A stretch of 64,000 nt of DNA from an uncultured delta proteobacterium (GCA_963733715.1 CAVTEN010000039.1:13074-77073); one strand, 5' to 3'. Counted from the stretch's first letter, positions 2,089-61,755 are shown. Numbers and translations: made by a program. Notes: generated by a model not told the origin, from the sequence alone.

Positions 2089-2126
2089 CCGGTTCCCCGC
2101 TCGGGAAGGGGTTAGGGGTTGGGTTC
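2089..2126 (+). repeat. REP family A copy 1 (left arm truncated)
   Basis: CCGGTTCCCC-GCTC-GGGAAGGGG-TTAGGGG-TTGGGTT; lacks the TTCCC of the left arm. Confidence 0.8.
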
Positions 2127-2143
2127 TTCGCGATTCAGGTTTG

Positions 2144-3112
2144 TTACGGTATCAGCACCAACTTCCCCGTCGATTGCCGCGACTCCATGAACTTGTGCGC
2201 CTCGGCCGCCTGCGCGAGCGGGAATGATTTGCCGACGAGCAGCTTGACCTTCCCCTGTGCGATCAGCTTGAACGATTCCTCGATTCCGCGGCGCATCGCC
2301 TCGGGCACCGCGGCCACGGTATACAGCGTGAAACCGCTCACCTTGGTCGATTTGTCGAACAGCCTGAACAAGTTGAGCGGCTCGGGCGCGTCGCCGGAGC
2401 GTCCATAGAGAATCAGATGCCCAAACGGAGCGAGGCACGTCATCCCCTTATCAAATGTTGTAGCGCCGATCGCGTCCAGGATCAGATCGACGCCGCGCCC
2501 TCCGGTCAGACGGTTTGCCTCGGCGGCGAAATCCTTCGTCGCGTAATTGATCACGTCGTCCGCGCCGTACTCTTTCGCGAGCGCGGCCTTGCTGTCGCTC
2601 GAGACCGTGCCAATCACGCGAGCGCCCGCTACCTTCGCGATTTGCACCGCGACGATTCCGACGCCACCTGCCGCGGAATGCACCAGCACCGTCTGTCCCG
2701 GTCGGGTGTCGTGCGCGGTGTGCAGCATGTGCCAGGCAGTCAGCACCTGCACCGGAAAGGCGGCGGCCTGCTCGAAGCTCAAGGAGTCGGGAATCGGAAT
2801 CACCTGCGTCGCCGGCGCGATCGCATACTCGGCGTACATCTTACTGCCGAGTGCGGCGACGCGCTGACCGGGCCTGAGATTCTCCACCCCCGCACCCACC
2901 GCCTCGATTTCGCCGGCCGCTTCGAGCCCCGGCGTATCGGGCAGTTGCGGCTGCATCATGTACTGTCCCTGCCGAAATAGCGTATCGGCAAAATTGATCC
3001 CGGCCGCGCGCACTTTGATCAGCACGGTTCCAGGCTTCACCTCCGGCTTCGGAACCTCCGCAATCTTCAGCACCTCGGGTCCGCCAACCTTGTCGAATAC
3101 CACAGCTTTCAT
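2144..3112 (-). CDS. qor: NADPH:quinone oxidoreductase (zeta-crystallin/MDR family)
   Basis: 'GGPEVL', 'AAGINFAD', 'PGLEAAGEI', 'VLVHSAAGGVG', 'GKLVLIP'. Confidence 0.9.
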   Translation of the reverse strand: MKAVVFDKVGGPEVLKIAEVPKPEVKPGTVLIKVRAAGINFADTLFRQGQYMMQPQLPDTPGLEAAGEIEAVGAGVENLRPGQRVAALGSKMYAEYAIAPATQVIPIPDSLSFEQAAAFPVQVLTAWHMLHTAHDTRPGQTVLVHSAAGGVGIVAVQIAKVAGARVIGTVSSDSKAALAKEYGADDVINYATKDFAAEANRLTGGRGVDLILDAIGATTFDKGMTCLAPFGHLILYGRSGDAPEPLNLFRLFDKSTKVSGFTLYTVAAVPEAMRRGIEESFKLIAQGKVKLLVGKSFPLAQAAEAHKFMESRQSTGKLVLIP

Positions 3113-3173
3113 GGAATCACCTCGATCGTAGCGTGATCAGCCTTCTTCCCCTCTCTCAGAATGGGAGAGGATC

Positions 3174-3195
3174 GTAGGACGGAATTTATTCCGTC
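3174..3195 (+). repeat. GTAG-type REP (family C)
   Basis: GTAG-GACGGAA-TTTA-TTCCGTC, identical to 17447-17468; preceded by a family-B-like hairpin CCTCTCTCAGAATGGGAGAGG at 3150-3170. Confidence 0.75.
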
Positions 3196-3299
3196 AACGC
3201 GCGTTTCGCGCGCGATTCAAGATTCTGCTCCAGGCAGCGCGAGCAGCATTTTGAGATCTATCTCACGGATTGCGGAACGATGGAACTCTTATCGCCAGA

Positions 3300-6123: not shown

Positions 6124-6136
6124 GGTTGGCCCCCAC

Positions 6137-13117: not shown

Positions 13118-13254
13118 TGAAACTTACTCCCGTGGATAATTGGCGTGAGCGTGAAACACCTGACGCCTCTGTTTCGCACGGCGAACCGCGGAGGGTCAAC
13201 CACCCTTCTTTTTCCCGTCCTCGGATTCAGCACTGCGCGCAACCGACTCCGCGT

Positions 13255-13296
13255 CCGGTTCCCCTTCCCGCGCGGGAAGGGGTTAGGGGTTAGGTT
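13255..13296 (+). repeat. REP family A copy 2
   Basis: CCGGTT-CCCCTTCCC-GCGC-GGGAAGGGG-TTAGGGG-TTAGGTT in a divergent intergenic region. Confidence 0.9.
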
Positions 13297-13357
13297 GCAA
13301 GCATCCGCAGTTCGCGCACTTGTGCGGCGACGCGAAATCGTGGAGAGGATTACCTCC

Positions 13358-14488
13358 ATGAAGATTCGACGACCCATCGTCCTTGACGTATTGGCGGTCC
13401 TGCTTTCTTTCGTTGTGCTGACTACATTCGCATCAGCAGCCGACTTCAAGGAAATCGGCGCATCAGGTAAACCGGGAATTTACCAATGGACATTCTTGGC
13501 GATCGTCGGCAAATCGCCGTTCGATAAGATCGCGCTGCATCGCCTCTGCAACGGACCGATTCCGCCCGCGCATCCCGAGGCCGTCGTGCTCTATTTGCCC
13601 GGCACCAACATGAACGGCGGAGTGGCGCTCGACGATCCGCGCTACTCGTTCCAGGTCTATCTTGCTCAGCAGGGTATTGACGTCTGGTCGATGGATTATC
13701 GCACGCATTTTATTCCGCCGCAGACGCCGCAGACCGATCTTTCCGAGCTGGCAGGATGGACCAATGATCTCTTCGAATCGGACATCAACGCCGCCGCGGC
13801 ATTTATCGGCGAAAAATCCGGCCGCGGCCGAATCTTCGTCGCCGGCTTCAGCCGCGGCGTCGAGTTCGCGTATCTCTTCGCCGCCAAGCACTATCCCGAG
13901 CGGGTCGCGGGAATCATCGCGCTCGACGGATTCATCCCGACTCATCCGATGCGCATTGAGCAGGGGACGCCTGGCCAATATGCCGTCGACATCGGCGGCA
14001 AACATCTTACCTACGACAAGCGGCGCACGCTGATGCAGATGGTGATCGACAATCCCGATCAGCCGGCGCCGATTCCAAAGTACAAGACCGCGCGCGAAAA
14101 CCTCGAGCACGTCATGTACGATGCGGCCCCCGGCAACGGCGCATTCGCGAATATGCAGGCCGGTCATTCCGATGCGGTAGTGCTCGCGAAACTGCTGATC
14201 GGTTACGATCGCTACTGGCCGTCGGTTCAGGACGGCGAGAATCCGTTCACGCCGCAACTGATCGCGTCGCTCAAGGCGTCAAAGATTCCGGTGATCGCGT
14301 TCGCTAGCACCAACTTCGGCCCGCAATGGCCCGGCGACGTCGAAGCAGCGTCGAAATCGACCGGCGCGCCCGACCCGTCATTCACCAAGCTCGACGGCTG
14401 GGGTCATCTCGACGTGTTGGCGGGTACGAAATCCGAAAGCCAGGTTTTCGCGCCGACGGCGGCGTGGATCAAGCAGCATGAGAAGTAG
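13358..14488 (+). CDS. secreted alpha/beta-hydrolase fold protein
   Basis: Signal peptide from ATG 13358; 'LYLPGT', nucleophile elbow 'AGFSRG', C-terminal 'GWGHLDV'. Confidence 0.75.
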   Translation: MKIRRPIVLDVLAVLLSFVVLTTFASAADFKEIGASGKPGIYQWTFLAIVGKSPFDKIALHRLCNGPIPPAHPEAVVLYLPGTNMNGGVALDDPRYSFQVYLAQQGIDVWSMDYRTHFIPPQTPQTDLSELAGWTNDLFESDINAAAAFIGEKSGRGRIFVAGFSRGVEFAYLFAAKHYPERVAGIIALDGFIPTHPMRIEQGTPGQYAVDIGGKHLTYDKRRTLMQMVIDNPDQPAPIPKYKTARENLEHVMYDAAPGNGAFANMQAGHSDAVVLAKLLIGYDRYWPSVQDGENPFTPQLIASLKASKIPVIAFASTNFGPQWPGDVEAASKSTGAPDPSFTKLDGWGHLDVLAGTKSESQVFAPTAAWIKQHEK

Positions 14489-36656: not shown

Positions 36657-36671
36657 GTGGAAAGGACTTAT

Positions 36672-46498: not shown

Positions 46499-46514
46499 GC
46501 GGCAATCTCGAAAT

Positions 46515-46982: not shown

Positions 46983-47021
46983 ATTATTGGAAGTATCGCG
47001 CGCAGATTTTCGGTATCCGCA

Positions 47022-47444: not shown

Positions 47445-47503
47445 CTTCAAGCCCGAAGAGATTTTTTTGAGTGAAATATGATCGTTCGCAGTCTCTTACT
47501 CCA

Positions 47504-47536
47504 GCTCGTCCGCCCGCATTTGCGAGACGGACGAGC
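47504..47536 (-). other. conserved intergenic RNA hairpin, copy 1
   Basis: Minus strand GCTCGTCCGTCTCGC-AAAT-GCGGGCGGACGAGC: 15-bp stem with two G-U pairs. Confidence 0.65.
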
Positions 47537-47556
47537 CAGAGAAAGATGTGTCAGCC

Positions 47557-49371
47557 CTACGGTATTGGGTTCGGCGAGGGCAAAGGCGAAGCCTGGCAAA
47601 TAGCCGCCGCGCACGTCGGCAGAGGCATCGGAGCGGGAATGAGAACGTTATTCCCCTGGGTCGTAGCCGAACCGCCCGTCATACAGGTACCGGTAAAGGT
47701 ATTGATGTCGGGATACGGTGTGGTGAAGCCATCGTTTAGCGTTTGCATGAAGGCAACGATCTGGTTCTCCTCCGTATCGCTCAAGCCGAGGTTTCCGACC
47801 GTCATGTCGATATTGTTCGGGACTTCGGGCTGCGGCCAGCAGTCGACCTTTTCAGTTTTTCCCTGTGGGCAGTTTCCGGAAGTGACGGGCTCCGGAAACA
47901 CGTCGCGCGTATTGTAGAAATGAACCAGTTGCTTGAGGCTCTTGGCGTAGCCGTTGTGAAATAATTCCTTCTGGAAGAACGGTATCGGATTCCCGTTCGC
48001 ATCGACCTGACCGGCCTCTGTGGTCGGACACTGGGGCGGCGTCAGGGCTACATCGCGCACGGTAGCGGTCTGCATCTGGCCGTCGGAAGTTGGTGCAAAT
48101 TGTGTGAAATTCGAGTCCGGATTGGGCGCCGAGCCAGGGCCGCTTCTAAGGAATGTGCCTAGTCCCAAATCTCTGAAGGCGAAGCCGAATGGATTCGGGG
48201 TAAACCCGAAGAAATCAGGTGTGGTCTGATAATAGAAAGCATCCCTGGGATTGAGCGGCAGTCCTAGATTGGCGTAGCCGAAGCAGGTGAACAGAGGCCT
48301 GGTAGACGCCGCGGCACCGGTGTCGGTCTGGCCCCCTGTCAGAGCGGTGGATCTTCCGTCGAGGTGGCAGGAATTGCAGTTGGCTTTGCCCTTGAAAAGA
48401 TTGTAGCCAGCCATCTCGTCTGCGCTCAGTGTGGCACTCCCTGCCAGGAAGGCGTCGAATTTCGAGGAAAAGGCGCTGACATCAATTGAGCGTTCGTAGA
48501 ATGAAACGGACTGGCCCCAGTGATCAAAAACATTGTTGGCCTTGGTGCGGTCATCGGGCTTTAGCTCCACTGGCTCGACGTTGGTGCCGAACACCGCCGC
48601 CCCTCCAGGGGTTTCGCAGATACTCTCGGTATTGTTCGGGAACTTGATATCGAGGGAATCGGCGCCCCATATCTCCTCGAAGAGAGGCGCGTACGCAGCC
48701 TGGGAGATCCGGAACGCGATGCAAGCCGTGTCGGGGAAGCCCATTTCCTGGGTATCAACCGGCGGATGCTGCGCCTGCTCGGCGTCGGGACTCTGCAGCT
48801 TGTATCCAGTCGAGCGCCCATCCCAGAAGTTTCCGCCAAAGAACGCGGCCTGCGTTGGGTCGAACTCGAACACCGGGAAATCGGGTGAATAGGTGTATCG
48901 CGGCGCGGTCCGCTTTCCGGCCCTGAAGTGAAACGTTCCCGGATACGCGATCATCGTCAGATTGACCGACGGGATCGGTCCGCTGAAGGCGACGTACGGC
49001 ATGTGGCACGAAGCGCAAGCCTCATTCCTGAAAGGAGACATATTCAGATCGAAATTCAGCAGTTTGCCGAGCACTTCCACGGCTTGATATCCGCTGCCCT
49101 GAATGGTGGGAGGGTTACCTGTGATCATCGGCGTTGGTAACGCCGAAGCCTGTCCTAGCGCTTCATTTTCGATGAACCCAACTTCGCGCTGAACCCGTGC
49201 TATCTCAGAATCCAAATCGGCCGGTAGAATGCCAGACGGATACGGGTTGTAAATTGCAGGTGATGGTGTCGCGACAGGTTTTTCTGCCGATGTGAGATGA
49301 GGATTTACGAACAGCGTGGCCACAAGGATTGCACAGACCACCAATAGTGGCAGCAGTTTCATTCGTTTCAC
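47557..49371 (-). CDS. diheme cytochrome c peroxidase superfamily protein (MauG/BthA-like), copy 1
   Basis: Signal peptide; CASCH and CNSCH heme motifs; 'FWDGR'; 'FHNG...LVHFYNTRD'; 'GNLGL...E..IVAF..TL.DG'. Confidence 0.9.
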   Translation of the reverse strand: MKRMKLLPLLVVCAILVATLFVNPHLTSAEKPVATPSPAIYNPYPSGILPADLDSEIARVQREVGFIENEALGQASALPTPMITGNPPTIQGSGYQAVEVLGKLLNFDLNMSPFRNEACASCHMPYVAFSGPIPSVNLTMIAYPGTFHFRAGKRTAPRYTYSPDFPVFEFDPTQAAFFGGNFWDGRSTGYKLQSPDAEQAQHPPVDTQEMGFPDTACIAFRISQAAYAPLFEEIWGADSLDIKFPNNTESICETPGGAAVFGTNVEPVELKPDDRTKANNVFDHWGQSVSFYERSIDVSAFSSKFDAFLAGSATLSADEMAGYNLFKGKANCNSCHLDGRSTALTGGQTDTGAAASTRPLFTCFGYANLGLPLNPRDAFYYQTTPDFFGFTPNPFGFAFRDLGLGTFLRSGPGSAPNPDSNFTQFAPTSDGQMQTATVRDVALTPPQCPTTEAGQVDANGNPIPFFQKELFHNGYAKSLKQLVHFYNTRDVFPEPVTSGNCPQGKTEKVDCWPQPEVPNNIDMTVGNLGLSDTEENQIVAFMQTLNDGFTTPYPDINTFTGTCMTGGSATTQGNNVLIPAPMPLPTCAAAICQASPLPSPNPIP

Positions 49372-49904
49372 GATCAGACTCCTCCATGAAACTCAATGGT
49401 TGAAGCTCCCGGGCGTTTTTTGCGAATGAAGTATTCGAACGGATCGCCAGATTGGGGCGTGAAAACTCGCTTCACAGAATTTCGCGGGTCGAAGACATCG
49501 GGAGAGATATATCGGGAATTTCTCAGGCGGTCGGTGCCGGGATTTTTCAGCGCTCCTGATTCGATGATGCATTACATCTTCTGGATGGCTCGTCCGATTC
49601 GCGGCCGAACGGCCGTTACAGCATTGGCTCCAGAAGCCACAATGGATGACGGTTGAGCCGAAGTGCTCAAGAGGCAGGAACGGGAGTTCGGTTTGCGGCC
49701 CACGCGCAAGTGCCGGCCGTGAAAGTAGCGTTCACAGCCACGAGCATCGCCTTCACGCGTATCGCAAAAAGGGTTTGGAAAATGTGGTACCCACACCGCC
49801 ATCCGCGAGACCGGCGCGATCCGAATCAGGATCGCGCCGGTTTGCTTGTCGGGTAATGACAGCAGTATCGGCGCGAGGCTATCGTTGCGCCGATTGTGCC
49901 TGCG

Positions 49905-50327
49905 CTATTGGAGCGTGGTGAACCGCTCAACCGAGCTCTTCACGCCGTCGCTCTTGCCAGTCGCCTGCATGGAGTCGACTGTGTAGTAGTAGGTCGTTCC
50001 CGGATTGAGGCCCAACACGCGCACGCGGAAAACCGTATCCGGATGGCTCCGGTTCAGCCTGATGGGAGATTTCGCCATCTGGTTCAAGTTCTGCGGATCT
50101 GTACCGAAGTGCACGATGCCCAAATGCTCGTCGGTACCTCCGGGGTTGTTGCTGGTCCACGTGATAATCGCCCAATTGCTCCTGGCCAATTCGAGCGACG
50201 GCCCTTGGCTGATCTGGACGCGCGCAGCGTTCTTCGCCGGAGGAAGTAGCTGAGCGATAGTTGGGTTGGAGTAGAGCAGTCCGCCGCTGACAACCATGAT
50301 CGCCAATATCAAAACCACTCTCTTCAT
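49905..50327 (-). CDS. small secreted fibronectin type III protein, copy 2
   Basis: Close paralog of 47022-47444 ('QGPSLELAR.NWAII.WTSNNPGG'). Confidence 0.85.
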   Translation of the reverse strand: MKRVVLILAIMVVSGGLLYSNPTIAQLLPPAKNAARVQISQGPSLELARSNWAIITWTSNNPGGTDEHLGIVHFGTDPQNLNQMAKSPIRLNRSHPDTVFRVRVLGLNPGTTYYYTVDSMQATGKSDGVKSSVERFTTLQ

Positions 50328-50394
50328 AATTCGAACCCCGGAGAGCATTGCTCGGTGAGAGTTGAACGACCCAACCTTAACCGCCATCGACGCC

Positions 50395-50429
50395 GGCTCG
50401 TCCGCCCGCATTCGCGAGACGGACGAGCC
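50395..50429 (-). other. conserved intergenic RNA hairpin, copy 2
   Basis: Same stem as 47504-47536 with the loop changed from AAAT to GAAT and one extra G-C pair. Confidence 0.65.
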
Positions 50430-50471
50430 AGAGAAGGGATGTCTTGAGCATCCACAGTTCAGCGCCTTGAC

Positions 50472-52316
50472 CTATGGAATAGGACTCGGCCCAGGCGTTG
50501 GCGCGATACCGCAGATGGCAGATGCGCACGGCGGCAGAGGCATCGGAGCTGGGATGAGCGAGCTATTGCCCTGGGTCGCAGCCGTACCGCCCGTCATACA
50601 GGTACCCGTATAGGTTCCGATGTCTGGATACGGCGTTATGTAACCGTCCGTGAGCGTTTGCAGGAAGGTAACGATCTGGTTCTCCTCGGTGTCAGTCAAG
50701 CCCAGTTTTCCGACCGTCATGTCGAGATTGTTCGTGACCTCGGGCGTCGGCCAGCAGTTTACCTTTTCGACTGTTCCTGCCGGGCAGTTTCCGGAAGTGA
50801 CGGGCTCCGGAAACACGTCGCGCGTGTTGTAGAAATGAACGAGTTGCTTCAGGCTCTTGATGTAGCCGTTGTGAAAGAACTCCTTCTGGAAGTAGGGCCC
50901 GGGTGCCTCGGTAGTGGGACACTGTGGCGGCGCCAGGCCCACATCGCGCGCGCTGGAGGTCTGCATTTGGCCGTCGGTCAACGGCGCATACTGTGTCCAT
51001 GCCGAGTTTGGATTATCCCAAGTGCCGAAGCCGCTCCTCAGGAAAGTGCCAAATCCCAAATCCCGGTACCCGAAGCCGTAAGGATTGGGCGTAAATCCGT
51101 AAAAATCCGGCGTGGTTTGATAGTAGAAAGCATCCCTTGGGTTGAGCGGCAGACCTAGATTCGAGTAGCCGAAGCAAGTGAACAGAGCCCTGGTAAGCGC
51201 CGGGGTTCCAGTGTCGGTCTGGCCTGGTGTCAGGGTAGTGGATAGTCCGTCGAGATGGCATGAATTGCAATTGCCTTTGCCGTTGAAGAGCGCGTAACCC
51301 GCCGCCTCGTCTGACGTCATGGTGTAGTTGCCCGCTATAAAGGCGTCGTACTTCGAGGTGAACGCGCTGACCCTAATTGAGCGCTCGTAGAAAGAAACGG
51401 ACTGCGCCCAATGATCGAAAGCATTGTTGGCCTTGGTGCGATCCTCGGGCTTTAGCTGAACTGGCTCGACGTTCGTGCCGAACACCGACGCCCCTCCGGG
51501 GGTTTCGCAGATACTCTCGGTATTGTTCGGGAACTTGATATCGAAGAGGGAACCGGCGCCCCATACCGCCTCGAAGAGAGGTGCGTAAACAGACTGGGAA
51601 ATCCGGTACGCGATGCAAGCAGTATCGGGGAAGCCCATTTCTTGCGTATCAACCGGGGGGCCCTGCGACTGGTTGGCGTCAGCACTCTGCAGCTTGTAAC
51701 CGGTCGCTCGTCCGTCCCAGAAATTTCCGCCAAAGAACGCGGCCAAGGGTACCGGCGGTGTCTGATTGACCAGTGCTGGGTCGAGCTCGAGTACAGGAAA
51801 ATCTGGAGCGTAGGGGTATCGTTGCGCGGTCCGCTTTCCGGCCCTGAAGTGAAAGGTTCCCGGATACGCGATCATCGTCAGGTTGACCGACGGGATCGGC
51901 CCACTGAAGCCGGCGTACGGCATGTGGCAGGAAGCGCACGCCGTATTCCTGAAGGGGGATATGTTCAGATCGTAATTCAGCAGTTTGCCGAGCACTTCTA
52001 TTGTTTGATATCCGCTGCCGTGAATAATCGGAGGGTTAGTCGTAAACGTGAGCGGTGGCAACGTGGCAGACTCACCGAGCGCCTCATTTTCGATGCCAGT
52101 AATTTCGCGCTGAACCCTCATTAACTCCGAATTCAGGTCGTCCGGTAGAATGCCAGACGGCACGGCAGACGGAATGTCAGACGGGTACGGGTTGTAAAGC
52201 ATTGGTGATGGAGTAGCTATCGGTTTTTTTGCTGATATGGGCGGAGGACCGATGAACAGCGTAGCCACGAGGATTGCAAGGACCGCCGATAGTGGTATCA
52301 ATCTCATTCGTTTCAT
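50472..52316 (-). CDS. diheme cytochrome c peroxidase superfamily protein (MauG/BthA-like), copy 2
   Basis: CASCH and CNSCH; 'FWDGR'; 'FHNGYIKSLKQLVHFYNTRD'; close paralog of copy 1. Confidence 0.9.
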   Translation of the reverse strand: MKRMRLIPLSAVLAILVATLFIGPPPISAKKPIATPSPMLYNPYPSDIPSAVPSGILPDDLNSELMRVQREITGIENEALGESATLPPLTFTTNPPIIHGSGYQTIEVLGKLLNYDLNISPFRNTACASCHMPYAGFSGPIPSVNLTMIAYPGTFHFRAGKRTAQRYPYAPDFPVLELDPALVNQTPPVPLAAFFGGNFWDGRATGYKLQSADANQSQGPPVDTQEMGFPDTACIAYRISQSVYAPLFEAVWGAGSLFDIKFPNNTESICETPGGASVFGTNVEPVQLKPEDRTKANNAFDHWAQSVSFYERSIRVSAFTSKYDAFIAGNYTMTSDEAAGYALFNGKGNCNSCHLDGLSTTLTPGQTDTGTPALTRALFTCFGYSNLGLPLNPRDAFYYQTTPDFYGFTPNPYGFGYRDLGFGTFLRSGFGTWDNPNSAWTQYAPLTDGQMQTSSARDVGLAPPQCPTTEAPGPYFQKEFFHNGYIKSLKQLVHFYNTRDVFPEPVTSGNCPAGTVEKVNCWPTPEVTNNLDMTVGKLGLTDTEENQIVTFLQTLTDGYITPYPDIGTYTGTCMTGGTAATQGNSSLIPAPMPLPPCASAICGIAPTPGPSPIP

Positions 52317-52835
52317 GACCTAACTCCTCCACGAAACTCATTTGTTGAAACTCTCGGGCGTTTTCTTTGCGGATGAATTATCTCGGGCGTAGCACCTCAG
52401 TTATGGACCTGGCGTTAGACGCACATCTGCGCAGACGCTCTCCGCGCCCACACCTGGTCGGTTAAGTGGATTGGAATTGCGTACTCTGCTGGCGGGAACG
52501 AGTATTCACTCTGGACGCTCCAGAGAAACGGTTCGCAATTTTTTTCGGGCAACTTTGTGGACGTCCCTGTTGATCCTCCGGGACGTCCTTCGCGGAACGG
52601 CTCGCGAAATGGCTAAGGCCAGTTGAAAACGGCTCTTATTGATCCTGAATAGCGCCGCGGCGAAATTGGGTCAAGCGAAATTGATGGCTCCGCAAGAGAC
52701 CGTGAGCAAGATCGCCCTATGTACTTTTTGGCTGCTAACTGCTCCTAACAGTCGCATCGGCGCCGAACTGTCCGCGTCCCGCTTGCGCCAGCGCCATGTA
52801 AACAGCTAGGGATTTCTGCGGGGAATTCAATATTT

Positions 52836-53624
52836 ATGTTCACGCCGGTTGAAATCGTCATTGCCGTTGTCGTCCTTGCGGCAATGATCTTCGTTCCAAT
52901 TATGCGCCGATTGCTCGGACTGATTATCCGCCTTGCGGTTTTTTTCGTCGCGGTCGGAATCGTGGCCGCCGGGGTCACGATGATCATGAACAACGAAACG
53001 ATCTTCGAACGGCCGGGCATCGGGCAGCGCGTCGAAAGATTCCTCACGCTGAACTCCGCGGCCGCCAGCACAACCGGCTCGGGCTCGGTGACGTGCGTGA
53101 TTGAAAGTCCGCCACCGCCGGCGCCAACTGCTGTCGAGGCCAAGCCGCACAAGCACGCCGCGAAAAAAGAGCCTGAGATTCAAACCACTCGAAACGACTT
53201 GTCGAAGGCTGAGCCTGCTCCGCTCGATGATATCTTTCCCGAATTGATTCGCCGCGGCTTTCCCGGAATTTCGCGCGAGAAGCTGTTCCAGCTCTCGACC
53301 GATACGGTCAACTCGCTGGGCGGATGGAGGATCGCCAAATCCAGCCCGGGCAACTTTACTCTCGATACCATCTACACGTCGCGAATTTTCAAATTCGAGG
53401 ACGACGTAAGAATCACGATCGACCCGTCCGGCGATATTGAAGTATGCGCGCGTTCCGGCCTGGCGCGCCCCGGCACAACCTCATTACTGCGTTACTTCCC
53501 CGGCGACCTCGGCTCAAACGTCGGACACATCAAACAATTCTACGAAGTCCTCGAGCCAAAAATGGACGAGGTTTATAAGGAAGAGCAGGACAAGCAGAAC
53601 GCGAAGAAGCCCCCGCAGCAATGA
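52836..53624 (+). CDS. membrane-anchored DUF1499-like protein
   Basis: Two N-terminal TM helices; C-terminal 'FKFEDDV.I.I...I.V.ARS...GDLGSN..HI' resembles DUF1499. Confidence 0.65.
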   Translation: MFTPVEIVIAVVVLAAMIFVPIMRRLLGLIIRLAVFFVAVGIVAAGVTMIMNNETIFERPGIGQRVERFLTLNSAAASTTGSGSVTCVIESPPPPAPTAVEAKPHKHAAKKEPEIQTTRNDLSKAEPAPLDDIFPELIRRGFPGISREKLFQLSTDTVNSLGGWRIAKSSPGNFTLDTIYTSRIFKFEDDVRITIDPSGDIEVCARSGLARPGTTSLLRYFPGDLGSNVGHIKQFYEVLEPKMDEVYKEEQDKQNAKKPPQQ

Positions 53625-53653
53625 TCACGCTGCGCCGCTTCTTGTTCTTTTAT

Positions 53654-53695
53654 CTGGTCCCCCTTCCCGCGCGGGAAGGGGTTAGGGGTTAGGTT
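53654..53695 (+). repeat. REP family A copy 7
   Basis: CTGGT-CCCCCTTCCC-GCGC-GGGAAGGGG-TTAGGGG-TTAGGTT. Confidence 0.9.
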
Positions 53696-53768
53696 CTTCG
53701 ACGCATCCACACTTTCCGCCGCGCTCGCTTTTGACAACACGCACTCGATCCGGTCAAGCTGTGATCGT

Positions 53769-54044
53769 ATGGCGATGCGGGAGGCTCAGATCGATGCGCT
53801 TGCGACTCATCTCGTGAATGGGTTGATCGATCGCGGCGTGATCAAACCCAAGGCCGACGTCAAGGAACTGATCGCGTGCGTGGTCGAGCTGATGTCGGAG
53901 AATTTCGAGACCGAAGCGCAAATCGACGAAGAAGCCGACAAGATGGCGGAGGTCGAAGCCCGCCGGGACACGCGCCTCGACGTCACGCGGCTACGGAACC
54001 TGATTCGCCAGCGTCTGGCCGAGAAGAAAAACTTCACGCTCTAA
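53769..54044 (+). CDS. DUF507 family protein
   Basis: 'E.QID.LA..LV..L','ENF..E..IDEEA','R.RLA.KK.F.L'. Confidence 0.75.
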   Translation: MAMREAQIDALATHLVNGLIDRGVIKPKADVKELIACVVELMSENFETEAQIDEEADKMAEVEARRDTRLDVTRLRNLIRQRLAEKKNFTL

Positions 54045-54047
54045 TCC

Positions 54048-54326
54048 ATGAAACTTACCGAAGCACGAGTCCTGTTCCTGGCGCGCGAGTCATTGGCAAA
54101 ATTGCGCGACGAGGGCCTGGCCGAGATCACAAACTTTCCACTCGCACTCCGGCAGGCGCGCGAAATCGTCGCGCAGTTCAACGAGCAAGGCGACGAAATC
54201 GACGCGATCGTGCGGCGCAAGATCAATTCGATCAAACGCGGCATCGTCGAAGGCTCCAACGAATGGACCCTGCTGTACAAACGCTACCGCGACGAAGAGA
54301 TGCGGAAGAAGGGGCCGCAGAGGTAG
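54048..54326 (+). CDS. DUF507 family protein
   Basis: 'MKL.E.RV.FLA...L..L','ID..VR.KI.S.KR.I.EGS.EW..LY.RY..EE'. Confidence 0.85.
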   Translation: MKLTEARVLFLARESLAKLRDEGLAEITNFPLALRQAREIVAQFNEQGDEIDAIVRRKINSIKRGIVEGSNEWTLLYKRYRDEEMRKKGPQR

Positions 54327-54696
54327 AAGTCGCCGGCGGGGAACATAATTAAATGTGAAACCCGCGGTGGGTTTCACGCTTCCTTCGGCAGGGGTGACCC
54401 CTGCACCCAGTGCTAATCGCAAAATGGCGAGGACGCCCTTTTGCTCTCAGCTTCTTTTCCTGTGTCATTCAGTTCTTGTGTCATTCAGAGCGAAAGCTGC
54501 TGTAGCGAAGAATCCCGGTCCGAATTACCTCTCCCGCGGACGGCGACTTGTCGCCGCCCGCAAACCGGGAGAGGTCGTCTGACGACATTCATGTCGTCGG
54601 ACGGGTGAGGGCCTCGGCATCGCGCTGAATACGAGCGCCTTCACCCGCCGCTTCGCGCGTACCGCCTCCCGGCTGCGCTTTGATACACTCACCAAC

Positions 54697-55026
54697 ATGG
54701 ACGACAACGAATTTCGCGAGCGTTCCGATGCTGCGCTCACCAAGGTCGCGAAGTGGCTCGAGGACCTCGATCCTGACGAAGTGGATTACACCACTGCCGA
54801 CGGCATCGTGACGATCGAGTTCGCGGGCGGCGCGAAGTTTATTTTGTCGCGGCAATCGCAGATGAAACAGATGTGGCTGGCGGCCGGCTCTCATGGGTTC
54901 CACTACAATTGGGATGCGGCGCGCAACTTGTGGATCGACGACAAGGACGGCCACGAATTGTTCCCACGCCTGACCGAAACGATATCCGAGCAACTCGGGC
55001 ATCCTGTCGATGAGCCTGGACACTGA
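54697..55026 (+). CDS. cyaY: iron donor protein CyaY (frataxin)
   Basis: 'MDD.EF...SD..L', 'GIVTIEF..G.K.ILSRQ....QMWLA..SHG.HY'. Confidence 0.88.
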   Translation: MDDNEFRERSDAALTKVAKWLEDLDPDEVDYTTADGIVTIEFAGGAKFILSRQSQMKQMWLAAGSHGFHYNWDAARNLWIDDKDGHELFPRLTETISEQLGHPVDEPGH

Positions 55027-56167
55027 CGTAATCGTAATTGGAGCAGGGCCGGGAGGATGTGCGGCTGCAATCAGGCTGGCTAGCGCCGGGTACGACGTGA
55101 TCGCGCTCGAGCGCAAGGAACGCGAGGACGGCGAAGATATCACGTCAGGCGAAGTGATGGTCGTGCCGACGCAGAACGAATGCGCGCAGCTCGCGGTTAA
55201 GTTCGAAGGCGACTGGGTCCTCGACCGAATCACCGGCTTCCGCAACGTCTATCCCGATCTGTCCTGGACGTATCATCCGATTCCCGCGAAGGTATTTCCG
55301 GTGCAGGTTGATCGCGGCGGATTCAATGCCGCGCTCCGTCGCAGGTTGATCGAAGCCGGCGGGCGGCTGGTCTGGAACGCGCGTGTCACCGACCTGGAAT
55401 TTCGCGACGATGCCGCAATCGCGATCACGGCCGACCTCAAGCGCTACTCAGCGCGCATGCTGATCGACGCCGGCGGACGTTACGCGCCGTCGCTGCGCGC
55501 TCTGAATCTGAAGTCCGAGGATCCGGAGTTCTCGCAAATCGGCGTCGCCGTCTTCTTCAAGTCGTTCGACGGCACGCCCCTCAATACGTGGGACCGCCAT
55601 CTGTACGGCGTGCGCGGCGCGATGATCAGCGGCTCGCGCATTCGGCCGGGGCTGTATCGATATATCCTCGAAGCGGATCTCGCCGAGAAACAAAGCGACC
55701 GGCTCGGCGCGATCGAATTTTACGAGTCAGTCGCACGGCATCATGATGCGTGGCTCTACGAACGCGTGATGCGAGAGCCGCGGGTGGGCCGGCAATGGTC
55801 GATGGCGCCGCTCGGGTATCGCGTGAGCGACGTCGCGCGCGACCGACTGCTTTTGGTTGGAGATGCGGCAGGATATCTCTCGCCGATAACAGGGCAGGGC
55901 AACGAATTCGCGCTGCGGACAGGGCGCCTGGCTGCAAGTGCCGCCGATGAGGCTTTGCGAGGCGGCGATCTATCGGCAGGAGCGTTCGCGTCGTACATCG
56001 CGGGCCGCAGATTCGAGGTCGAGCGCCAGGTCGATTACGTCCGAGCGCAGTTGCGAATCCTGCGCGACCCCGCCGCGCTGCTGAGGGCGTCGCGGGATGA
56101 TGCGTATCGCGCGCAAATTTTCGGTCCATATGGGATCCCTGCGAGTGATCGCGGCTCCCTGGTTTAA
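55010..56167 (+). CDS. FAD-dependent oxidoreductase (geranylgeranyl reductase-like)
   Basis: 'VIVIGAGPGG','VDRG.F...L','IDA.G','LLVGDAAG...P.TGQG'. Confidence 0.88.
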   Translation: MSLDTDVIVIGAGPGGCAAAIRLASAGYDVIALERKEREDGEDITSGEVMVVPTQNECAQLAVKFEGDWVLDRITGFRNVYPDLSWTYHPIPAKVFPVQVDRGGFNAALRRRLIEAGGRLVWNARVTDLEFRDDAAIAITADLKRYSARMLIDAGGRYAPSLRALNLKSEDPEFSQIGVAVFFKSFDGTPLNTWDRHLYGVRGAMISGSRIRPGLYRYILEADLAEKQSDRLGAIEFYESVARHHDAWLYERVMREPRVGRQWSMAPLGYRVSDVARDRLLLVGDAAGYLSPITGQGNEFALRTGRLAASAADEALRGGDLSAGAFASYIAGRRFEVERQVDYVRAQLRILRDPAALLRASRDDAYRAQIFGPYGIPASDRGSLV

Positions 56168-56182
56168 GGACATCTCCTTGAT

Positions 56183-56250
56183 AGTGGGGCGGGCCGCCGT
56201 GCCCGCCATCGACTCGCGGAGGGGAGGCGGGCACGGCGGCCCGCCCCACT
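56183..56250. repeat. perfect 25-bp inverted doublet (REPIN-like)
   Basis: AGTGGGGCGGGCCGCCGTGCCCGCC (56183-56207) and its exact reverse complement (56226-56250). Confidence 0.85.
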
Positions 56251-56355
56251 CAATGAAACAGCCCCACTGCTGACTGAAACCCAGGACACCAAACACCGCA
56301 ATCCACGACCTTATCCACAGGACTTGCAATTCTTTGGGATCTGGCTAAGATGCCG

Positions 56356-56410
56356 TTAGCACTCAGACGTTGCGAGTGCCAATTGACAAAACCCGGACAG
56401 TAATTAACTT
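56356..56410 (+). promoter_or_regulatory. CIRCE element (HrcA operator) abutting a sigma70 promoter
   Basis: TTAGCACTC-N9-GAGTGCCAA at 56356-56382, then TTGACA (56383-56388) and TAACTT (56405-56410), upstream of groES. Confidence 0.92.
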
Positions 56411-56476
56411 CCGACCGCGGGAATCGTCCCGTTAAGCAACACTTTTCGTAAGCCATAAGGAGGCTGCTGGTTCGCC

Positions 56477-56767
56477 ATGAAAGGATTAAGGCCATTGGGA
56501 GATCGAATTCTCGTCAAGCGCGTTAAGGAAGAGGAGCGGACCAAGGGTGGCATCATCATCCCGGACACCGCCAAGGAAAAACCGCAGGAGGGCAAAATCG
56601 TTGCCGTCGGCAAGGGCAAGTACAGCGACGACGGCAAGCTTATCCCGATCGAAGTGAAGCCGGGGGACAAAATTCTGTTCGGCAAGTATTCGGGCAGCGA
56701 GTTCAAGCTCGAGGGCGAGGACCTGCTCATCCTGCGCGAGGACGACATCCTGGGAATCATCGACTAG
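56477..56767 (+). CDS. groES: co-chaperonin GroES
   Basis: '[32 protein letters not shown]'. Confidence 0.98.
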
Positions 56768-56823
56768 GCAATCGCGCTCTTCAAATGAGTGCCAGTTTCT
56801 AACCACTAAAAAAAGAAAAATAG

Positions 56824-58476
<1,653 letters not shown>

Positions 58477-58500
58477 TTCAGGAACAAATCTGAGACTGAC

Positions 58501-58539
58501 ACAGCGGCGGAGCCATCGAGGTTCCGCCGCTGTTTTTTT
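58501..58539 (+). terminator. intrinsic terminator of groESL
   Basis: ACAGCGGCGGAGCC-ATCGA-GGTTCCGCCGCTGT followed by a T run. Confidence 0.9.
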
Positions 58540-58549
58540 GGAGAGCAGG

Positions 58550-58590
58550 AACCTAACCCCTAACCCCTTCCTCGAGGGAAGGGGAGCTGG
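58550..58590 (-). repeat. REP family A copy 8
   Basis: AACCTAACCCCTAACCCCTTCC-TCGA-GGGAAGGGG-AGCTGG. Confidence 0.85.
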
Positions 58591-58901
58591 AATAGGTGGA
58601 GTCACCTCTTCCCTTGAACAGGAAGCTGAACAAATCGTCATTGTGTCACTGTCATGCAACAAATCACTTGCGTGCAACGCTGATCGTGAATTCCGATCAT
58701 AACGAGGCGGATCGGACTGCACTCAAATAGTCAATTAAGTGGCTTCCAATCGCATTTGGCTAGTCTGTTCAGAAATCGGACAGTCGCCTTCGAGGCGCGC
58801 AGTTCTTGGCCCCGCCCTTGCTAAATACCCCATACGGATCGCAGCTGTGTGACGCCTTGGGGACTGGGCTGGCGCAGTGCTCGTCCATGGAGGTGCCGCT
58901 G

Positions 58902-59318
58902 ATGGCAGTACGAGTGCTCATTGCGGACAGCTCGGGGATCACGCGGGACATCATGCGCAATCATCTGGAATGCGGCGGATGTCAGATAGTAGCGGAGACC
59001 GAGACGGTCGCGCAGACAATCGATCTCTTCCGCACTACGCGGCCGGATGTCGTCACGCTCGACATCGGGCTGCGTAGTGAGCGAGGGCTCGACGGCTTGT
59101 CGCTGTTCAGGATGATTCGCCGCGAATCGCCGGACACGTCGATCGTGATGGTCAGCGCGTCGCAGGCACCGGACGACAATCGAATCTACCTGCGCGAGGG
59201 CGCGCTCGAATGTATCGTCGAGCCATTTGACAGTTATGGGCTGGAGCGGATGTGGCGGCGACTGTCGGACATCTACCCCGAGCTCAGACGCCGCGACGAG
59301 GCGGCGTCGGGGCGCTGA
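58902..59318 (+). CDS. stand-alone response regulator receiver domain (atypical)
   Basis: 'RVLIADS','PDVVTLDI','IVMVSA','GALECIVEPF'; GGAGG RBS before ATG 58902. Confidence 0.85.
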   Translation: MAVRVLIADSSGITRDIMRNHLECGGCQIVAETETVAQTIDLFRTTRPDVVTLDIGLRSERGLDGLSLFRMIRRESPDTSIVMVSASQAPDDNRIYLREGALECIVEPFDSYGLERMWRRLSDIYPELRRRDEAASGR

Positions 59319-59334
59319 AATAGCTAACCGACCA

Positions 59335-60108
59335 TCAGTCTGTCGAACGCTCTAGCGCAACCATCAGGCGTTCGATTAAGAGGGGCTGGCCGGGGATGCA
59401 ATTGATCCAGAGCACCCATCCCGAATTCTCGCTCGAGTAGAGCGGCGCCGGGGTGCCGCAATAAAATGCGCGCGTCGAGCCCTGCGACACGTCGCTCAGC
59501 ACGTGCACGTGGCCGAGCGCGACGTAGTCGTAATGCGAGCGCTGGATGTCCGCCGGCGTGATCGGCGACGATCTCTCAATCTCGCCCTCCTCCATGAAGA
59601 AGCCGTGCGCGAGCGCGATGTTCCAGCGTCCTTCCGCCGGCTCGGGTACGCCGCTCATCGGGCGATAGTCGGGAGTATGCTCGACCAGCGCGCGGCCCCA
59701 TACGCGAGTCGCCAGATCGGGGAAATCGATCGTCCTGCCTTCGGGCTCGAGAATCAGGTGCAGGTTTTCCGGAAGAACGCCGGGCGCGAGGCCGGCGTAA
59801 ATCGATCGCTCGTCGTGCGCGTCATGGTTGCCTGGGATCATCACGACCGGCATCTGCGCCCGCGCAATCGTGCCCATCGCGAACGCGAGGCCTTCCTCGG
59901 TGACGCGCGCCGAATCGAAAAGATCGCCGACAATCAGCAGCATGTCGGCGTGGCGCTCGTTGGCGATGTCGATGACGCGGCTGAATGCGGTGCGCACTTT
60001 GTCGCGCAACTGGATGCCGCGCTCGCCGGATCCGAACGTGTCAGTCTCGAGATGAACGTCGGAAGTATGGAGGATCTTGAGTGGGCGATGCGGCAGCTTA
60101 GCTGGCAA
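59335..60108 (-). CDS. Mre11/SbcD-like metallophosphoesterase
   Basis: 'LHTSDVHL','VGDLFD','IPGNHD','LAHG','YVALGHVH'. Confidence 0.9.
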   Translation of the reverse strand: MPAKLPHRPLKILHTSDVHLETDTFGSGERGIQLRDKVRTAFSRVIDIANERHADMLLIVGDLFDSARVTEEGLAFAMGTIARAQMPVVMIPGNHDAHDERSIYAGLAPGVLPENLHLILEPEGRTIDFPDLATRVWGRALVEHTPDYRPMSGVPEPAEGRWNIALAHGFFMEEGEIERSSPITPADIQRSHYDYVALGHVHVLSDVSQGSTRAFYCGTPAPLYSSENSGWVLWINCIPGQPLLIERLMVALERSTD

Positions 60109-60241
60109 AATTGAGTCCTTCGATGCGCCAATTCGGTCGTGGGCGCTCAGTTCCGGTCGATGCGGACATGCTGTAGAGTCAGATTTACTAGAGTTCGGGC
60201 GCCCATACCACCGCAAAGCGTTATCGCAGAGGGCTTATCAC

Positions 60242-61261
60242 TTGATCGTCGTAATGAAAGCGCATGCCACTGAAGCCGAGATTCAGGCCGTAGCCAGGAT
60301 GGTCGAGGAACTCGACTACAACGCGCACATTATTCGCGGCATCGAGCGCACCGTCGTCGCATGCGTCGGCGATGAGCGCGGCGAGAAGCATCAACTGACG
60401 CATCTCGAGTCCGTGGCTGGGGTCGAGCGCGTGATGCCGGTGGTGCGGTCGTTCAAGTTGTCGTCGCGCGAGGTGCGCCCCGAAGGATCGATAGTCAAAG
60501 TCGGCGGCATGGAAATCGGCGGCAAGCGAATCGCGGTGATCGCGGGACCGTGCGCAATCGAAAGTGAGGAGCAAGTAGAAGCCGCGGCAGATGCGGTGAA
60601 AAAAGCGGGCGCGCATGCGCTGCGCGGCGGAGCATTCAAGCCGCGCACGTCGCCGTACTCGTTCCAGGGAATGGAAGAAGAGGGACTCGTGTTGCTCGAG
60701 CACGCCGGGCGGCGCGTCGGATTGCCGGTGGTGACCGAGATTATGGACCCGCACGATATCGACCTGGTCGCCGAGCATTCCGACATGCTGCAGGTCGGCG
60801 CGCGCAATGCGCAGAATTTCTCGCTGCTGCGCCGTCTCGGCAGGATCAAGAAGCCGGTGCTGCTCAAGCGCGGCATGTCGATGAAGCTCGAAGAGTTCAT
60901 GATGGCGGCGGAATATATTTTGTCGGAGGGCAATCCCAACGTCGTGCTATGCGAGCGCGGGATTCGCACCTTCGAGACCGCGACGCGCAACACGCTTGAT
61001 CTGAACGCCGTGCCGCTGCTCAAGGAATGGACGCATCTGCCGGTGCTGGTCGATCCGAGTCACGGGACTGGAATCTACAAGATGGTGGCGCCGATGGCTC
61101 TGGCAGCGATCGCAGCGGGTGCCGACGGCCTGCTGATCGAAGTGCATCCGAAGCCCGAGGCCGCGCTGTCCGACGGCCCGCAGCAATTGAAACCGTCGCG
61201 CTTCGCCGATTTGATGAAGACGCTGAAGCCGCTGGCGGAGGCGGTCGGAAGAACGCTGTAA
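60242..61261 (+). CDS. aroF: DAHP synthase, class I-beta with N-terminal ACT domain
   Basis: 'IAGPCAIES','RGGAFKPRTSPYSFQG','QVGARN.QNF','LKRG','CERGIRTFE','DPSHGTG'. Confidence 0.95.
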   Translation: MIVVMKAHATEAEIQAVARMVEELDYNAHIIRGIERTVVACVGDERGEKHQLTHLESVAGVERVMPVVRSFKLSSREVRPEGSIVKVGGMEIGGKRIAVIAGPCAIESEEQVEAAADAVKKAGAHALRGGAFKPRTSPYSFQGMEEEGLVLLEHAGRRVGLPVVTEIMDPHDIDLVAEHSDMLQVGARNAQNFSLLRRLGRIKKPVLLKRGMSMKLEEFMMAAEYILSEGNPNVVLCERGIRTFETATRNTLDLNAVPLLKEWTHLPVLVDPSHGTGIYKMVAPMALAAIAAGADGLLIEVHPKPEAALSDGPQQLKPSRFADLMKTLKPLAEAVGRTL

Positions 61262-61278
61262 TTGGCGGTGCGATTTAT

Positions 61279-61755
61279 CCGGTTCCCCTTCCCACTATGG
61301 GAAGGGGTTAGGGGTTAGGTTGCTTTCGTCCAAGCGCCTCCCTGATGTAGTCGACCGCCGCTTCAACATCGATCATCCCCTCGTTCGGAATTCTGAGGAC
61401 CCGAACCCCCGCCCGAATGATGGTTTTGTCACGCGATTGGTCGTACTTCCACTGTTCCTGATGAACCCCTCCGTCTAGTTCGATCGCCAATTTGGCGGCT
61501 GCGCAATAAAAGTCGACCACATATCCTTCGATTACCTGCTGGCGGCGAAAGTGAAATCCGTCGATCGCATTCCGTCGAATGGCGGCCCAGAGTCTGCGCT
61601 CCGCAGGAGTCATCTCGCGCCGCAATTGCTTCGCGAGAGACAGCTTGTCTGGTGACACACGTTTGCCACGCGTGACTTTGCGGCTTGGTGTCATAGGCAT
61701 AGCGCGTTCCAGATTACCTAACCCCTAACCCCTTCCCATAGTGGGAAGGGGAATC
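61279..61755. mobile_element. REP-A / DUF559 / inverted REP-A cassette 2
   Basis: Perfect 38-bp inverted repeats 61283-61320 and 61716-61753 (ACTAT loops) flank an intact DUF559 gene. Mobility is inferred. Confidence 0.6.
61308..61700 (-). CDS. DUF559 (Vsr-like) endonuclease
   Basis: 'EMTPAE..LW','FRRQQVIEGYVVDFYC...LAIELDGGVH','D..RD','GVRVLRIPN'; ends 'PNP*' inside the REP. Confidence 0.92.
   Translation of the reverse strand: MPMTPSRKVTRGKRVSPDKLSLAKQLRREMTPAERRLWAAIRRNAIDGFHFRRQQVIEGYVVDFYCAAAKLAIELDGGVHQEQWKYDQSRDKTIIRAGVRVLRIPNEGMIDVEAAVDYIREALGRKQPNP

Follow-up and report, generated by a model that had tools for sequence, protein, structure and literature searches.

A short hairpin repeat, here termed family A, occurs ten times in a 64-kb stretch of assembly G000 (C39:13074-77073; the assembly has 5.58 Mb in 41 contigs, with 60% G+C), and four of these ten copies are the ends of two small cassettes carrying genes of the DUF559 family (PF04480). 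The stretch is referred to as the window, and coordinates are positions within it unless a contig is named. Our analysis suggests that family A is a triplex-type repeat and that its cognate DUF559 protein, a predicted nuclease, may recognize, cut and homogenize it, in a partnership resembling that of repetitive extragenic palindromic (REP) elements and REP-associated tyrosine transposases (RAYT) with a different enzyme in place of the transposase. We assign this statement as a whole a probability of about 0.5.

DUF559 genes within repeat frames

Mapping the repeat copies against DUF559 genes, as a sequence-only reading of the window had proposed, proved to be the key to their interpretation. 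PF04480 has ten matches in the genome, nine of them intact, and all nine intact genes lie between two inverted hairpin repeats whose G-rich tails point inward. Family A forms four of these frames, A', a close variant of it, one, family C two, and families D and E one each; families C, D and E have 38, 8 and 10 copies in the genome, respectively. A cassette framed by family A measures ~470 bp, and both the stop codon and the 5' leader of the DUF559 gene fall within the repeat and its 3' extension, the last codons and the TAA stop of the gene at 61308-61700 coming from the repeat tail. The extension, ~22 nt past TTAGGTT (TT-SCYNSGCATC...CRCRA), is weakly conserved, follows a near-invariant core of 43 nt and resembles the inner ends of the DUF559 cassettes on the N-terminal and C-terminal sides alike, so that a scattered family A copy represents one complete cassette terminus of ~65 nt.

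The framed genes are predicted to encode Vsr-like PD-(D/E)XK nucleases of the DUF559 family. Three of them were scanned against Pfam and matched PF04480 above the gathering score (E=3e-34, 6e-32 and 9e-26), and 12 of 12 intact genes of the A type, defined here by at least 64% identity, share the acidic/His motif D...E-x-D-G..H without change. The DUF559 protein also matches PDB entries 3HRL, an endonuclease-like protein (1e-14), and 3R3P, named "Mobile intron protein" in PDB (1e-4). A 2012 survey of PD-(D/E)XK proteins placed 3R3P in the Vsr/DUF559 group, with a reference to a group I intron homing endonuclease (PMC3424549). The 12 intact A-type genes share 72% nucleotide identity, with a saturated pS of 0.65 and a dN/dS of 0.12, indicating that these genes are old, under purifying selection and predicted to be functional, yet the 43-nt repeats that flank them are identical. 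In the protein encoded at 46579-46947, 5 residues are deleted immediately behind the conserved VVD, which may impair the protein.

We further compared genomes of the genus Candidatus Binatus, using species representatives, many of which are metagenome-assembled genomes. In a first sample, 21 of 25 Candidatus Binatus genomes contained a 21-mer of family A, which was absent from 16 genomes representing other genera of the class; family A is thus specific to this genus. Among 47 species representatives, copy number (at most one mismatch) ranges from 0 to 204 per genome. A-type DUF559 genes occur in 19 of these 47 genomes, and ~29 of the 31 genes are inside an A-repeat frame, cassettes having been tallied for each genome by eye from match listings. 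Genomes with an A-type gene have a median of 86 copies and those without it 5.5 (Mann-Whitney p=6e-7); likewise, the cassette is present in 18 of 24 genomes with at least 30 copies and in 1 of 23 with fewer (Fisher p=6e-7). The orthologue of window 53250-54150 has a cassette at a distance of 1-10 kb in at least nine species, and this shared neighbourhood speaks for long residence rather than recent invasion.

The correspondence also holds between clades and outside the genus. In a tree of 35 DUF559 proteins of the class, the A, A', ACTCCCCC-hairpin and CCCTCTCCC-type clades each have their own repeat. At least ten copies of GGGAGAGG N4-7 GGTGAGGG, a hairpin like that of TMECO (a repeat of the BoxC/PIT/TM kind, see below), were found in 12 of 17 DUF559-bearing genomes of the class and in 1 of 44 without DUF559 (p=4e-8). 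In E. coli K-12, a TMECO copy stands ~170 bp past the 3' end of the DUF559 gene ycjD, and a degenerate pyrimidine/purine hairpin covers the ycjD stop. Together, these data give us high confidence that the association of family A with DUF559 is real. Between ycjD and the TMECO copy, a duplicated fragment of the ycjD 3' end (ggttcag..gaatattctccagcaccgtctcc) is also present (NC_000913.3, 1351200-1351420), which suggests a past rearrangement at this DUF559 locus.

Further cassettes and their possible derivatives lie elsewhere in the genome. A third DUF559 cassette is located at C39:81414-81861, ~4.3 kb past the right end of the window and within the same neighbourhood of 22 kb. Its frame is the variant repeat A' (TTCCCCTTCCCC, ~9-11 nt of loop, GGGGAAGGGG TCAGGGGTTAGGGT), outside which stands a second pair, CCCCCTTTCC..GGAAAGGGGG TTAGGGGATAGG, and its DUF559 protein is only ~55% identical to the A type, forming a separate clade with that of G041. 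Family C occurs in tail-to-tail pairs ~207 bp apart at three loci, with the inner sequence in common and outer inverted ends CTTTGCATAAC...GTTATGCAAAG. The family C pairs look like gene-less derivatives of a DUF559 cassette, of the type of miniature inverted-repeat transposable elements (MITEs).

Three-arm architecture of family A

A search for GGGAAGGGGTTAGGGG with at most two mismatches returned 151 matches in 5.58 Mb, 111 of them exact, so that family A is not restricted to the window. Ten of the matches are in the window, compared with 0 in 100 dinucleotide-preserving shuffles. Family A is ~6-fold enriched in the window (10 observed vs 1.7 expected; Poisson p=1.4e-5). All ten copies claimed in the sequence-only reading were recovered, with coordinates within 1 nt, agreeing strands and the same loop tallies (GCGC in four, GCTC in two, ACTAT in three and TCGA in one), and the exact hairpin core CCCCTTCCC-N3-6-GGGAAGGGG is found eight times in the window. 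The description of a dense, structured, REP-like intergenic family is supported, the family does not adjoin a Y1 transposase, and the claimed lack of a GTAG tag was borne out by a 43-nt consensus containing no GTAG, CTAC, CGTC or GACG.

The G-rich strand of family A consists of a 9-nt pyrimidine arm CCCCTTCCC, a loop of 4-5 nt, a 9-nt purine arm GGGAAGGGG, the trinucleotide TTA and a third 9-nt arm GGGGTTAGG, and at least 103 copies have this layout. The third arm mirrors the purine arm, T standing opposite A, except for a single odd A. The tail, which had been labelled (TTAGGGG)2, parses instead as TTA + GGGGTTAGG + TT and is not telomere-like. Both edges of the repeat are sharp, the 5' edge lying 7 nt before the arm (TCCGGTT, or GATTGTT in the TCGA-loop sub-family) and the 3' edge just after TTAGGTT.

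In class II purine-motif intrastrand triplexes, a pyrimidine arm and a purine arm are followed by a 3' reverse-Hoogsteen arm that runs antiparallel to the purine arm, and the triads are G.G:C and A/T.A:T (Holder et al. 2015, PMC4666352). Under the ITxF definition given in that work, stems span 6-15 nt and tolerate one mismatch when longer than 7 nt, and loops have 1-6 nt (PMC4666352). Family A agrees with this definition in strand order, antiparallel third arm, triads and loop sizes, and 8 of the 9 positions of its third arm would form allowed triads. On these sequence features, family A very probably belongs to the triplex-motif class. TMECO reads CCCTCNCCC N3-6 GGGNGAGGG N3 GGGNGAGGG, with TTA or CCG as the second loop (PMC4666352). 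Family A (CCCCTTCCC/GGGAAGGGG/GGGGTTAGG) departs from this TMECO/BoxC consensus in the strict sense, and other repeats of the class Binatia, for example in G039 and G082, match it, indicating that family A is a sister family and not TMECO itself. Because purine-motif triplexes do not form in RNA (PMC4666352), any triplex of family A would exist at the DNA level.

The mirror symmetry extends to other hairpins of the genome. Among 456 homopyrimidine-loop-homopurine hairpin readings, 182 carry a mirror third arm with at most one mismatch (59 of them perfect) compared with 2 when the flanks were shuffled, and a perfect direct (non-mirror) repeat was found only once vs 59 perfect mirrors. Five repeat families covary in all three arms, namely CCCCTTCCC/GGGAAGGGG/GGGGTTAGG (family A), CCTCTCCCT/AGGGAGAGG/GGTGAGGGT, CCCTCCTCC/GGAGGAGGG/GGGTGGAGG, CCCTCCCCC/GGGGGAGGG/GGGTGGGGG and CCCCTCTCC/GGAGAGGGG/GGGGAGAGG. 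Structural constraint is visible only between families and not within A. Of the computational evidence available, the three-way covariation most strongly supports a putative constraint on triplex-forming potential, or on a protein that would read the same mirror symmetry. Family A is a new sequence family of the BoxC/PIT/TM kind, in a phylum where this kind was not described.

Within family A, all 43 nt except the loop are constant as sequence. When copies are gathered by the tail alone, variant positions make up 1.9% and 1.5% of the two stem arms, and the tail, in copies gathered by the head, varies about as little as the stem. The loops fall into four discrete classes (ACTAT 50, TCGA 27, GCTC 23 and GCGC 16 copies genome-wide) that cover nearly all copies and are partly tied to the 5' flank. 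The near-invariance of stem and tail described earlier therefore stands, whereas the freely varying loop does not. The stem does not mutate as freely as the loop, yet the inference of selection on structure drawn from this contrast was too narrow: the tail is as invariant as the stem, and among 35 mutated stem pairs 23 are broken and 12 still pair, mostly as wobbles, with 1 changed on both sides.

Several variants of family A and its neighbours were also observed. A sub-family of at least 12 loci has an 8-10 nt insert, CCCGAAAA(A/C)A, which sits between GGG and (AA)GGGG of the 3' purine arm and breaks it; at two orthologous sites, relatives have the canonical form. In the copy at C32:57973-57992, the tail has grown to four TTAGGG(G) units, indicating that tail length can change by slippage. 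Sister hairpins with the same or similar arms and another tail (GGGAAGGGG TTACTCC), here termed family B, often adjoin family A in mosaics like those of bacterial interspersed mosaic elements. Additional intergenic repeats recur beside family A (GTGAAACCCRCSGYGGGTTTCAC then GGCAGGGGTGACCCCTGCACC; GACCGAGAGCAAAGTAGYGCGCTGCGCGCRACTTTGCGATTGA; AACAGGGACGAAGTCCCGCATCTT); they are found at 54355-54377 (minus strand) in the window and at many loci genome-wide, and they replace family A at orthologous sites of relatives.

Proposed partnership and competing explanations

Comparison of orthologous sites showed that the repeats turn over between species. At the site of copy 7 (53653), four other species have the repeat, identical except for head and loop, in surrounding intergenic DNA that is unalignable; the site is empty in one species and occupied by other hairpin repeats in two. 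When 94 repeat-bearing sites of relatives were mapped onto G000, 57 were empty, 31 had a copy in the same orientation, 2 had one in the opposite orientation and 4 had a partial or variant copy. Only 8 of the 31 co-occupied sites have the loop class in common, which points either to more than one insertion at a given position or to conversion of one copy by another.

We propose that the cognate DUF559 protein would recognize family A as a duplex palindrome, a hairpin or a triplex, and would nick or cut it. Homing-like recombinational repair between copies would then keep the copies identical and occasionally seed new ones, while the DUF559 gene itself would stay low-copy and vertically inherited. 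Cutting and repair of this kind would explain the alike conservation of stem and tail, the switching of loops at orthologous sites, the mosaic combinations of head and loop, the saturated genes beside identical flanks and a copy number that depends on the gene. Such an action of the nuclease on the repeat is a tentative step, which we consider plausible rather than probable.

A number of observations weigh against this proposal. Six genomes have 31-117 copies and no detected intact A-type gene; they are mostly fragmented or incomplete assemblies, and only one of them, G013, has an internally deleted A cassette. G054, with 117 copies at 92% completeness, is a real exception, and these six genomes indicate that high copy number does not strictly need the gene. 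The correlation between repeat and gene could also come from a gene that merely needs the repeat as a landing site. Intergenic DNA is too diverged between species representatives to fix the insertion boundaries of family A, and no consistent target-site motif or duplication was found: GGTT stands at both ends of the repeat and is kept in one empty site, and five further flush empty sites revealed no consistent pattern. As to the folded structure, the conserved A opposite G:C at position 7 is the one non-triad base of family A, compensatory covariation is absent among the 35 mutated stem pairs, and the triplex folding of TMECO is an in vitro result, unsupported in vivo (PMC4666352). In addition, the outer flanks of 15 cassettes contained no direct repeats, only A/T-richness.

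The strongest competing explanation, unlikely in our view, is that the repeat owes its spread or upkeep to something else, for instance selection by the host for a regulatory or structural role, slippage during replication or a different enzyme, and that DUF559 is a selfish homing-type gene using the repeats as a landing or homology site. This would fit the relation of DUF559 in sequence to 3R3P, listed as a group I intron homing endonuclease, the constant embedding of the gene in the repeat and the existence of high-copy genomes without the gene, and more targets would favour persistence of the gene, producing the same correlation. A homing gene, however, normally splits one target, whereas the DUF559 flanks are complete inverted copies, and gene-less tail-to-tail family A doublets, which this explanation needs as the empty target, were not found in this genome. 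Moreover, genes that are low-copy, saturated, under strong purifying selection and in the same neighbourhood in at least nine species have a long-resident, useful or domesticated look, and the identity of ~100 repeat copies across species would be left unexplained.

It is still less probable that family A is a host-selected 3'-end element, a stabilizing or terminating hairpin as proposed for E. coli REPs, with an incidental link to DUF559. The position of the repeat favours such a role: with genes called by our own codon-usage caller (4928 genes, 81% coding; in a spot check, Pfam matched seven of ten window genes), which leaves some error in context counts, 142 of 147 copies are intergenic, mostly 15-150 nt past gene ends, and in about three quarters of copies the head faces the end of a same-strand gene. 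Compared with the genome's intergenic regions, convergent gaps are over-represented and divergent ones under-represented, and between tandem genes the G-rich strand is on the sense side in 51 cases vs 21 (p=5e-4). The hairpin is stable as RNA (-22 kcal/mol), and in other species its intergenic position is taken by different hairpin repeats. Nevertheless, the tail TTAGGGGTTAGGTT has no T run, 0 of 6 copies in 44000-62500 scored as terminator-like, and copy 8 (58550) stands just past a canonical terminator (58501-58533 plus a T run) that already serves groEL. PIT/TMECO elements reportedly had neither promoter nor terminator activity in E. coli (cited in PMC4666352), the unpaired tail of family A is as invariant as its stem, and neither the clade-by-clade match with DUF559 nor the range of 0-204 copies within the genus would be explained. 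A host-selected 3'-end role may exist alongside either a partner nuclease or a landing site.

The location of family A also affects the annotation of its neighbours. On its complementary strand, each of the three frames offers a stop (TAA twice in the tail, TAG in the ATAGT loop), the repeat contains the ends of several genes, and family A gives neighbouring genes stop codons and spurious C-terminal extensions (..LTPNPFP..). No significant replication-strand bias of family A was detected. The idea that the pyrimidine-rich 5' flank is a reversed ribosome-binding site, antisense between co-directional genes, was rejected because sister repeats next to family A (tail TTACTCC) account for the signal and most heads follow the end of a same-strand gene.

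Competition between the hairpin and a G-quadruplex built from the G tracts of 3' arm and tail had been raised in the sequence-only reading; as a structural switch, it is highly improbable. The G-rich strand does offer tracts of GGG, GGGG, GGGG and GG, and the hairpin makes up 0.3 of the DNA ensemble on the G strand vs 0.59 on the C strand. By definition, however, a G-quadruplex takes four runs of at least 3 G joined by short linkers and exceeds its alternatives in stability, and family A has only three such runs (3, 4, 4 and 2 G) and no predicted quadruplex. With the G-quadruplex term of ViennaRNA, the RNA hairpin stays the minimum free energy structure, and the G-rich half alone gives 0.0 kcal/mol, with neither structure nor quadruplex; as DNA, the hairpin has -10 to -12 kcal/mol. 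In each of the five families the tail mirrors the purine arm, even where its own G tracts are poorer (GGTGAGGG). A third, reverse-Hoogsteen strand in an intrastrand triplex of the purine motif is the better explanation of the G-rich tail. Least probable of all is an ordinary RAYT-mobilized REP/REPIN family, which would fit the REP-like size, hairpin and intergenic habit and two weak Y1-transposase-like matches in the genome, but these PF01797 matches are partial (35 and 26 bits) and neither is framed by family A, the nearest listed copy being ~12 kb from one match and ~22 kb from the other, there is no GTAG or CGTC tag, and inverted doublets occur only around DUF559.

Copies in the window and related repeat systems

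The ten copies of the window and the associated features are listed in Table 1. Copy 1, damaged in its 5' arm, has TTGGG in its tail and lies 18 nt past the stop of a zinc alcohol dehydrogenase (ADH) gene (2147-3112, minus strand). Copy 2 is followed on its 3' side by a GCAAGCATCC-type extension; a 447-aa plus-strand open reading frame (ORF) of the gene caller (13145-14488) crosses this copy, and neither this ORF nor an opposing one of 264 aa matched Pfam. The TAA stop of a luciferase-like monooxygenase gene (35319-36590, plus strand) falls within the tail of copy 4. Copies 3 and 4 (34280-36620) face each other with their tails, 2.3 kb apart, and enclose this monooxygenase gene and a 298-aa ORF without a Pfam match; the arrangement may be due to chance, or may mark a larger unit bounded by repeats. 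Copy 9 lies 16 nt past the stop of a DAHP synthase gene. In the window, no Rfam family reached the gathering score, and no tRNA or tmRNA was found.

Table 1. Positions of family A copies, DUF559 genes and associated repeats (window coordinates unless a contig of G000 is given)
Feature	Location	Strand	Details
Family A copy 1, damaged	2088-2125	+	5' arm cut to CCCC (5 nt lost), loop GCTC, tail TTAGGGGTTGGGTT
Family A copy 2, canonical	13254-13296	+	TCCGGTT CCCCTTCCC GCGC GGGAAGGGG TTA GGGGTTAGG TT
Family A copy 3	34280-34322	+	loop GCTC
Family A copy 4	36577-36620	-	loop ACTAT
Family A copy 5	46514-46556	+	left terminal inverted repeat of DUF559 cassette 1, inward tail
DUF559 gene, A-type, cassette 1	46579-46947	+	122 aa; stop within right repeat
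Family A copy 6	46941-46983	-	right terminal inverted repeat of DUF559 cassette 1
Family A copy 7	53653-53695	+	28 nt past stop of upstream gene
Family A copy 8	58550-58591	-	TCGA-loop sub-family, one G of 3' arm missing
Family A copy 9	61278-61321	+	terminal inverted repeat of DUF559 cassette 2, C-terminal side
DUF559 gene, A-type, cassette 2	61308-61700	-	130 aa, intact; ends ...GRKQPNP*
Family A copy 10	61715-61758	-	terminal inverted repeat of DUF559 cassette 2, N-terminal side; head TTTGATT, tail ...GGTA
Family A copies with CCCGAAAA(A/C)A insert	C15:8223, C15:13028, C20:468932, C25:4962, C34:27754, at least 7 more		
Family B beside family A	36621-36660, 61759-61800; C37:28132, C20:290665, C30:36544/36738, others		
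Family C pairs, ~207 bp	C5:45884/46091, C21:109012/109219, C23:133458/133665		
Family C larger pair, ~340 bp	C23:25297/25637		DUF559 fragment retained

Descriptions of BoxC/PIT/TM repeats date from the 1990s, and their copies number in the thousands; work on BoxC, PIT and TMECO is reportedly due to Bachellier et al. in the 1990s and Hoyne et al. in 2000. These repeats form triplexes in vitro and mark unstable loci. Family A is identical to them in geometry, with a 9-nt C/T arm, a 3-6 nt loop, a 9-nt G/A arm, a 3-nt loop and a 9-nt mirror G/T arm with one mismatch allowed, and its second loop, TTA, is that of TMECO type A. It is likewise intergenic, shows very high identity between copies and copy numbers that differ sharply between close relatives, and is associated with variable loci without a transposase nearby. 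Different from TMECO (CCCTCNCCC/GGGNGAGGG/GGGNGAGGG), which was counted in Proteobacteria, family A has the triad CCCCTTCCC/GGGAAGGGG/GGGGTTAGG and is hosted by Binatota; in addition, its 7-nt head is conserved, a 3' extension of ~22 nt follows its core, and its strand is biased with respect to the upstream gene. Moreover, published work names no partner protein for BoxC/PIT/TMECO, whereas family A frames DUF559 genes.

REP/REPIN-RAYT systems (REPtrons) are said to be treated in Nunvar 2010 and in Bertels & Rainey 2011. Further accounts are given by Di Nocera 2013 (PMC3733652) and in PMC8266576. Like these systems, family A is a short hairpin repeat dispersed through intergenic DNA, inverted copies of the repeat frame their own enzyme gene, which is low-copy and vertically inherited, each enzyme clade has one repeat family, and repeat abundance follows the presence of the gene. 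However, the enzyme associated with family A is Vsr-like, of the PD-(D/E)XK type, and not an HUH/Y1 transposase, there is no GTAG/CGTC tag, the repeat carries a third-strand domain, and its scattered copies are singlets rather than REPIN doublets. By analogy, family A and DUF559 would work like REP and RAYT while lacking both defining RAYT features, the tag and the Y1 enzyme.

Two further types of element are comparable in part. Vsr-like homing endonucleases of the PD-(D/E)XK type, both free-standing and encoded in introns (3R3P, PMC3424549), have a homologous catalytic domain (E=1e-4), and their genes, like those of DUF559, are embedded in sequence found gene-less elsewhere. The DUF559 cassette, by contrast, is not in an intron, its flanks are complete inverted repeats and not halves of a target, and its gene is syntenic across species and under purifying selection. 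With MITEs derived from insertion sequences, the cassettes share terminal inverted repeats around a small gene and deleted gene-less forms at several loci (the ~207-bp doublets of family C), but the family A system has no recognizable transposase, and its abundant form is a single terminus and not a pair.

Among the papers searched, none links DUF559 to REP, BoxC or triplex repeats, and the only printed hint is an enrichment of DUF559 among predicted inversion targets (PMC9881135). In the 2015 survey of TMECO, no enzyme or mobility function was found near the repeat (PMC4666352), and the 2013 REP survey left untagged (non-GTAG) palindromic repeats without a partner (Di Nocera et al., PMC3733652). 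Judged from its sequence associations, DUF559 is a candidate partner of this orphan class of triplex-type repeats. A broader claim, that DUF559 nucleases in general would be dedicated partners of BoxC/TM-type triplex repeats, each clade recognizing and cutting its own folded, possibly triple-helical repeat and driving the homing-like multiplication and homogenization of its copies, is more speculative and, in our view, less likely than not.

Two questions are at stake, namely what spreads and maintains triplex-type repeats, and what DUF559 does, a very large family to which, to our knowledge, no role has been assigned. The genome studied here is a natural experiment on both, with several coexisting repeat families that each frame a separate nuclease clade, and genus- and class-wide statistics tie the abundance of the repeats to the DUF559 gene. 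If the broader claim is true, such a partnership would constitute a second, RAYT-independent class of repeat and caretaker, built on a PD-(D/E)XK nuclease and the recognition of non-B DNA, and would account both for an orphan repeat class of the 1990s and for a very large protein family of "unknown function".

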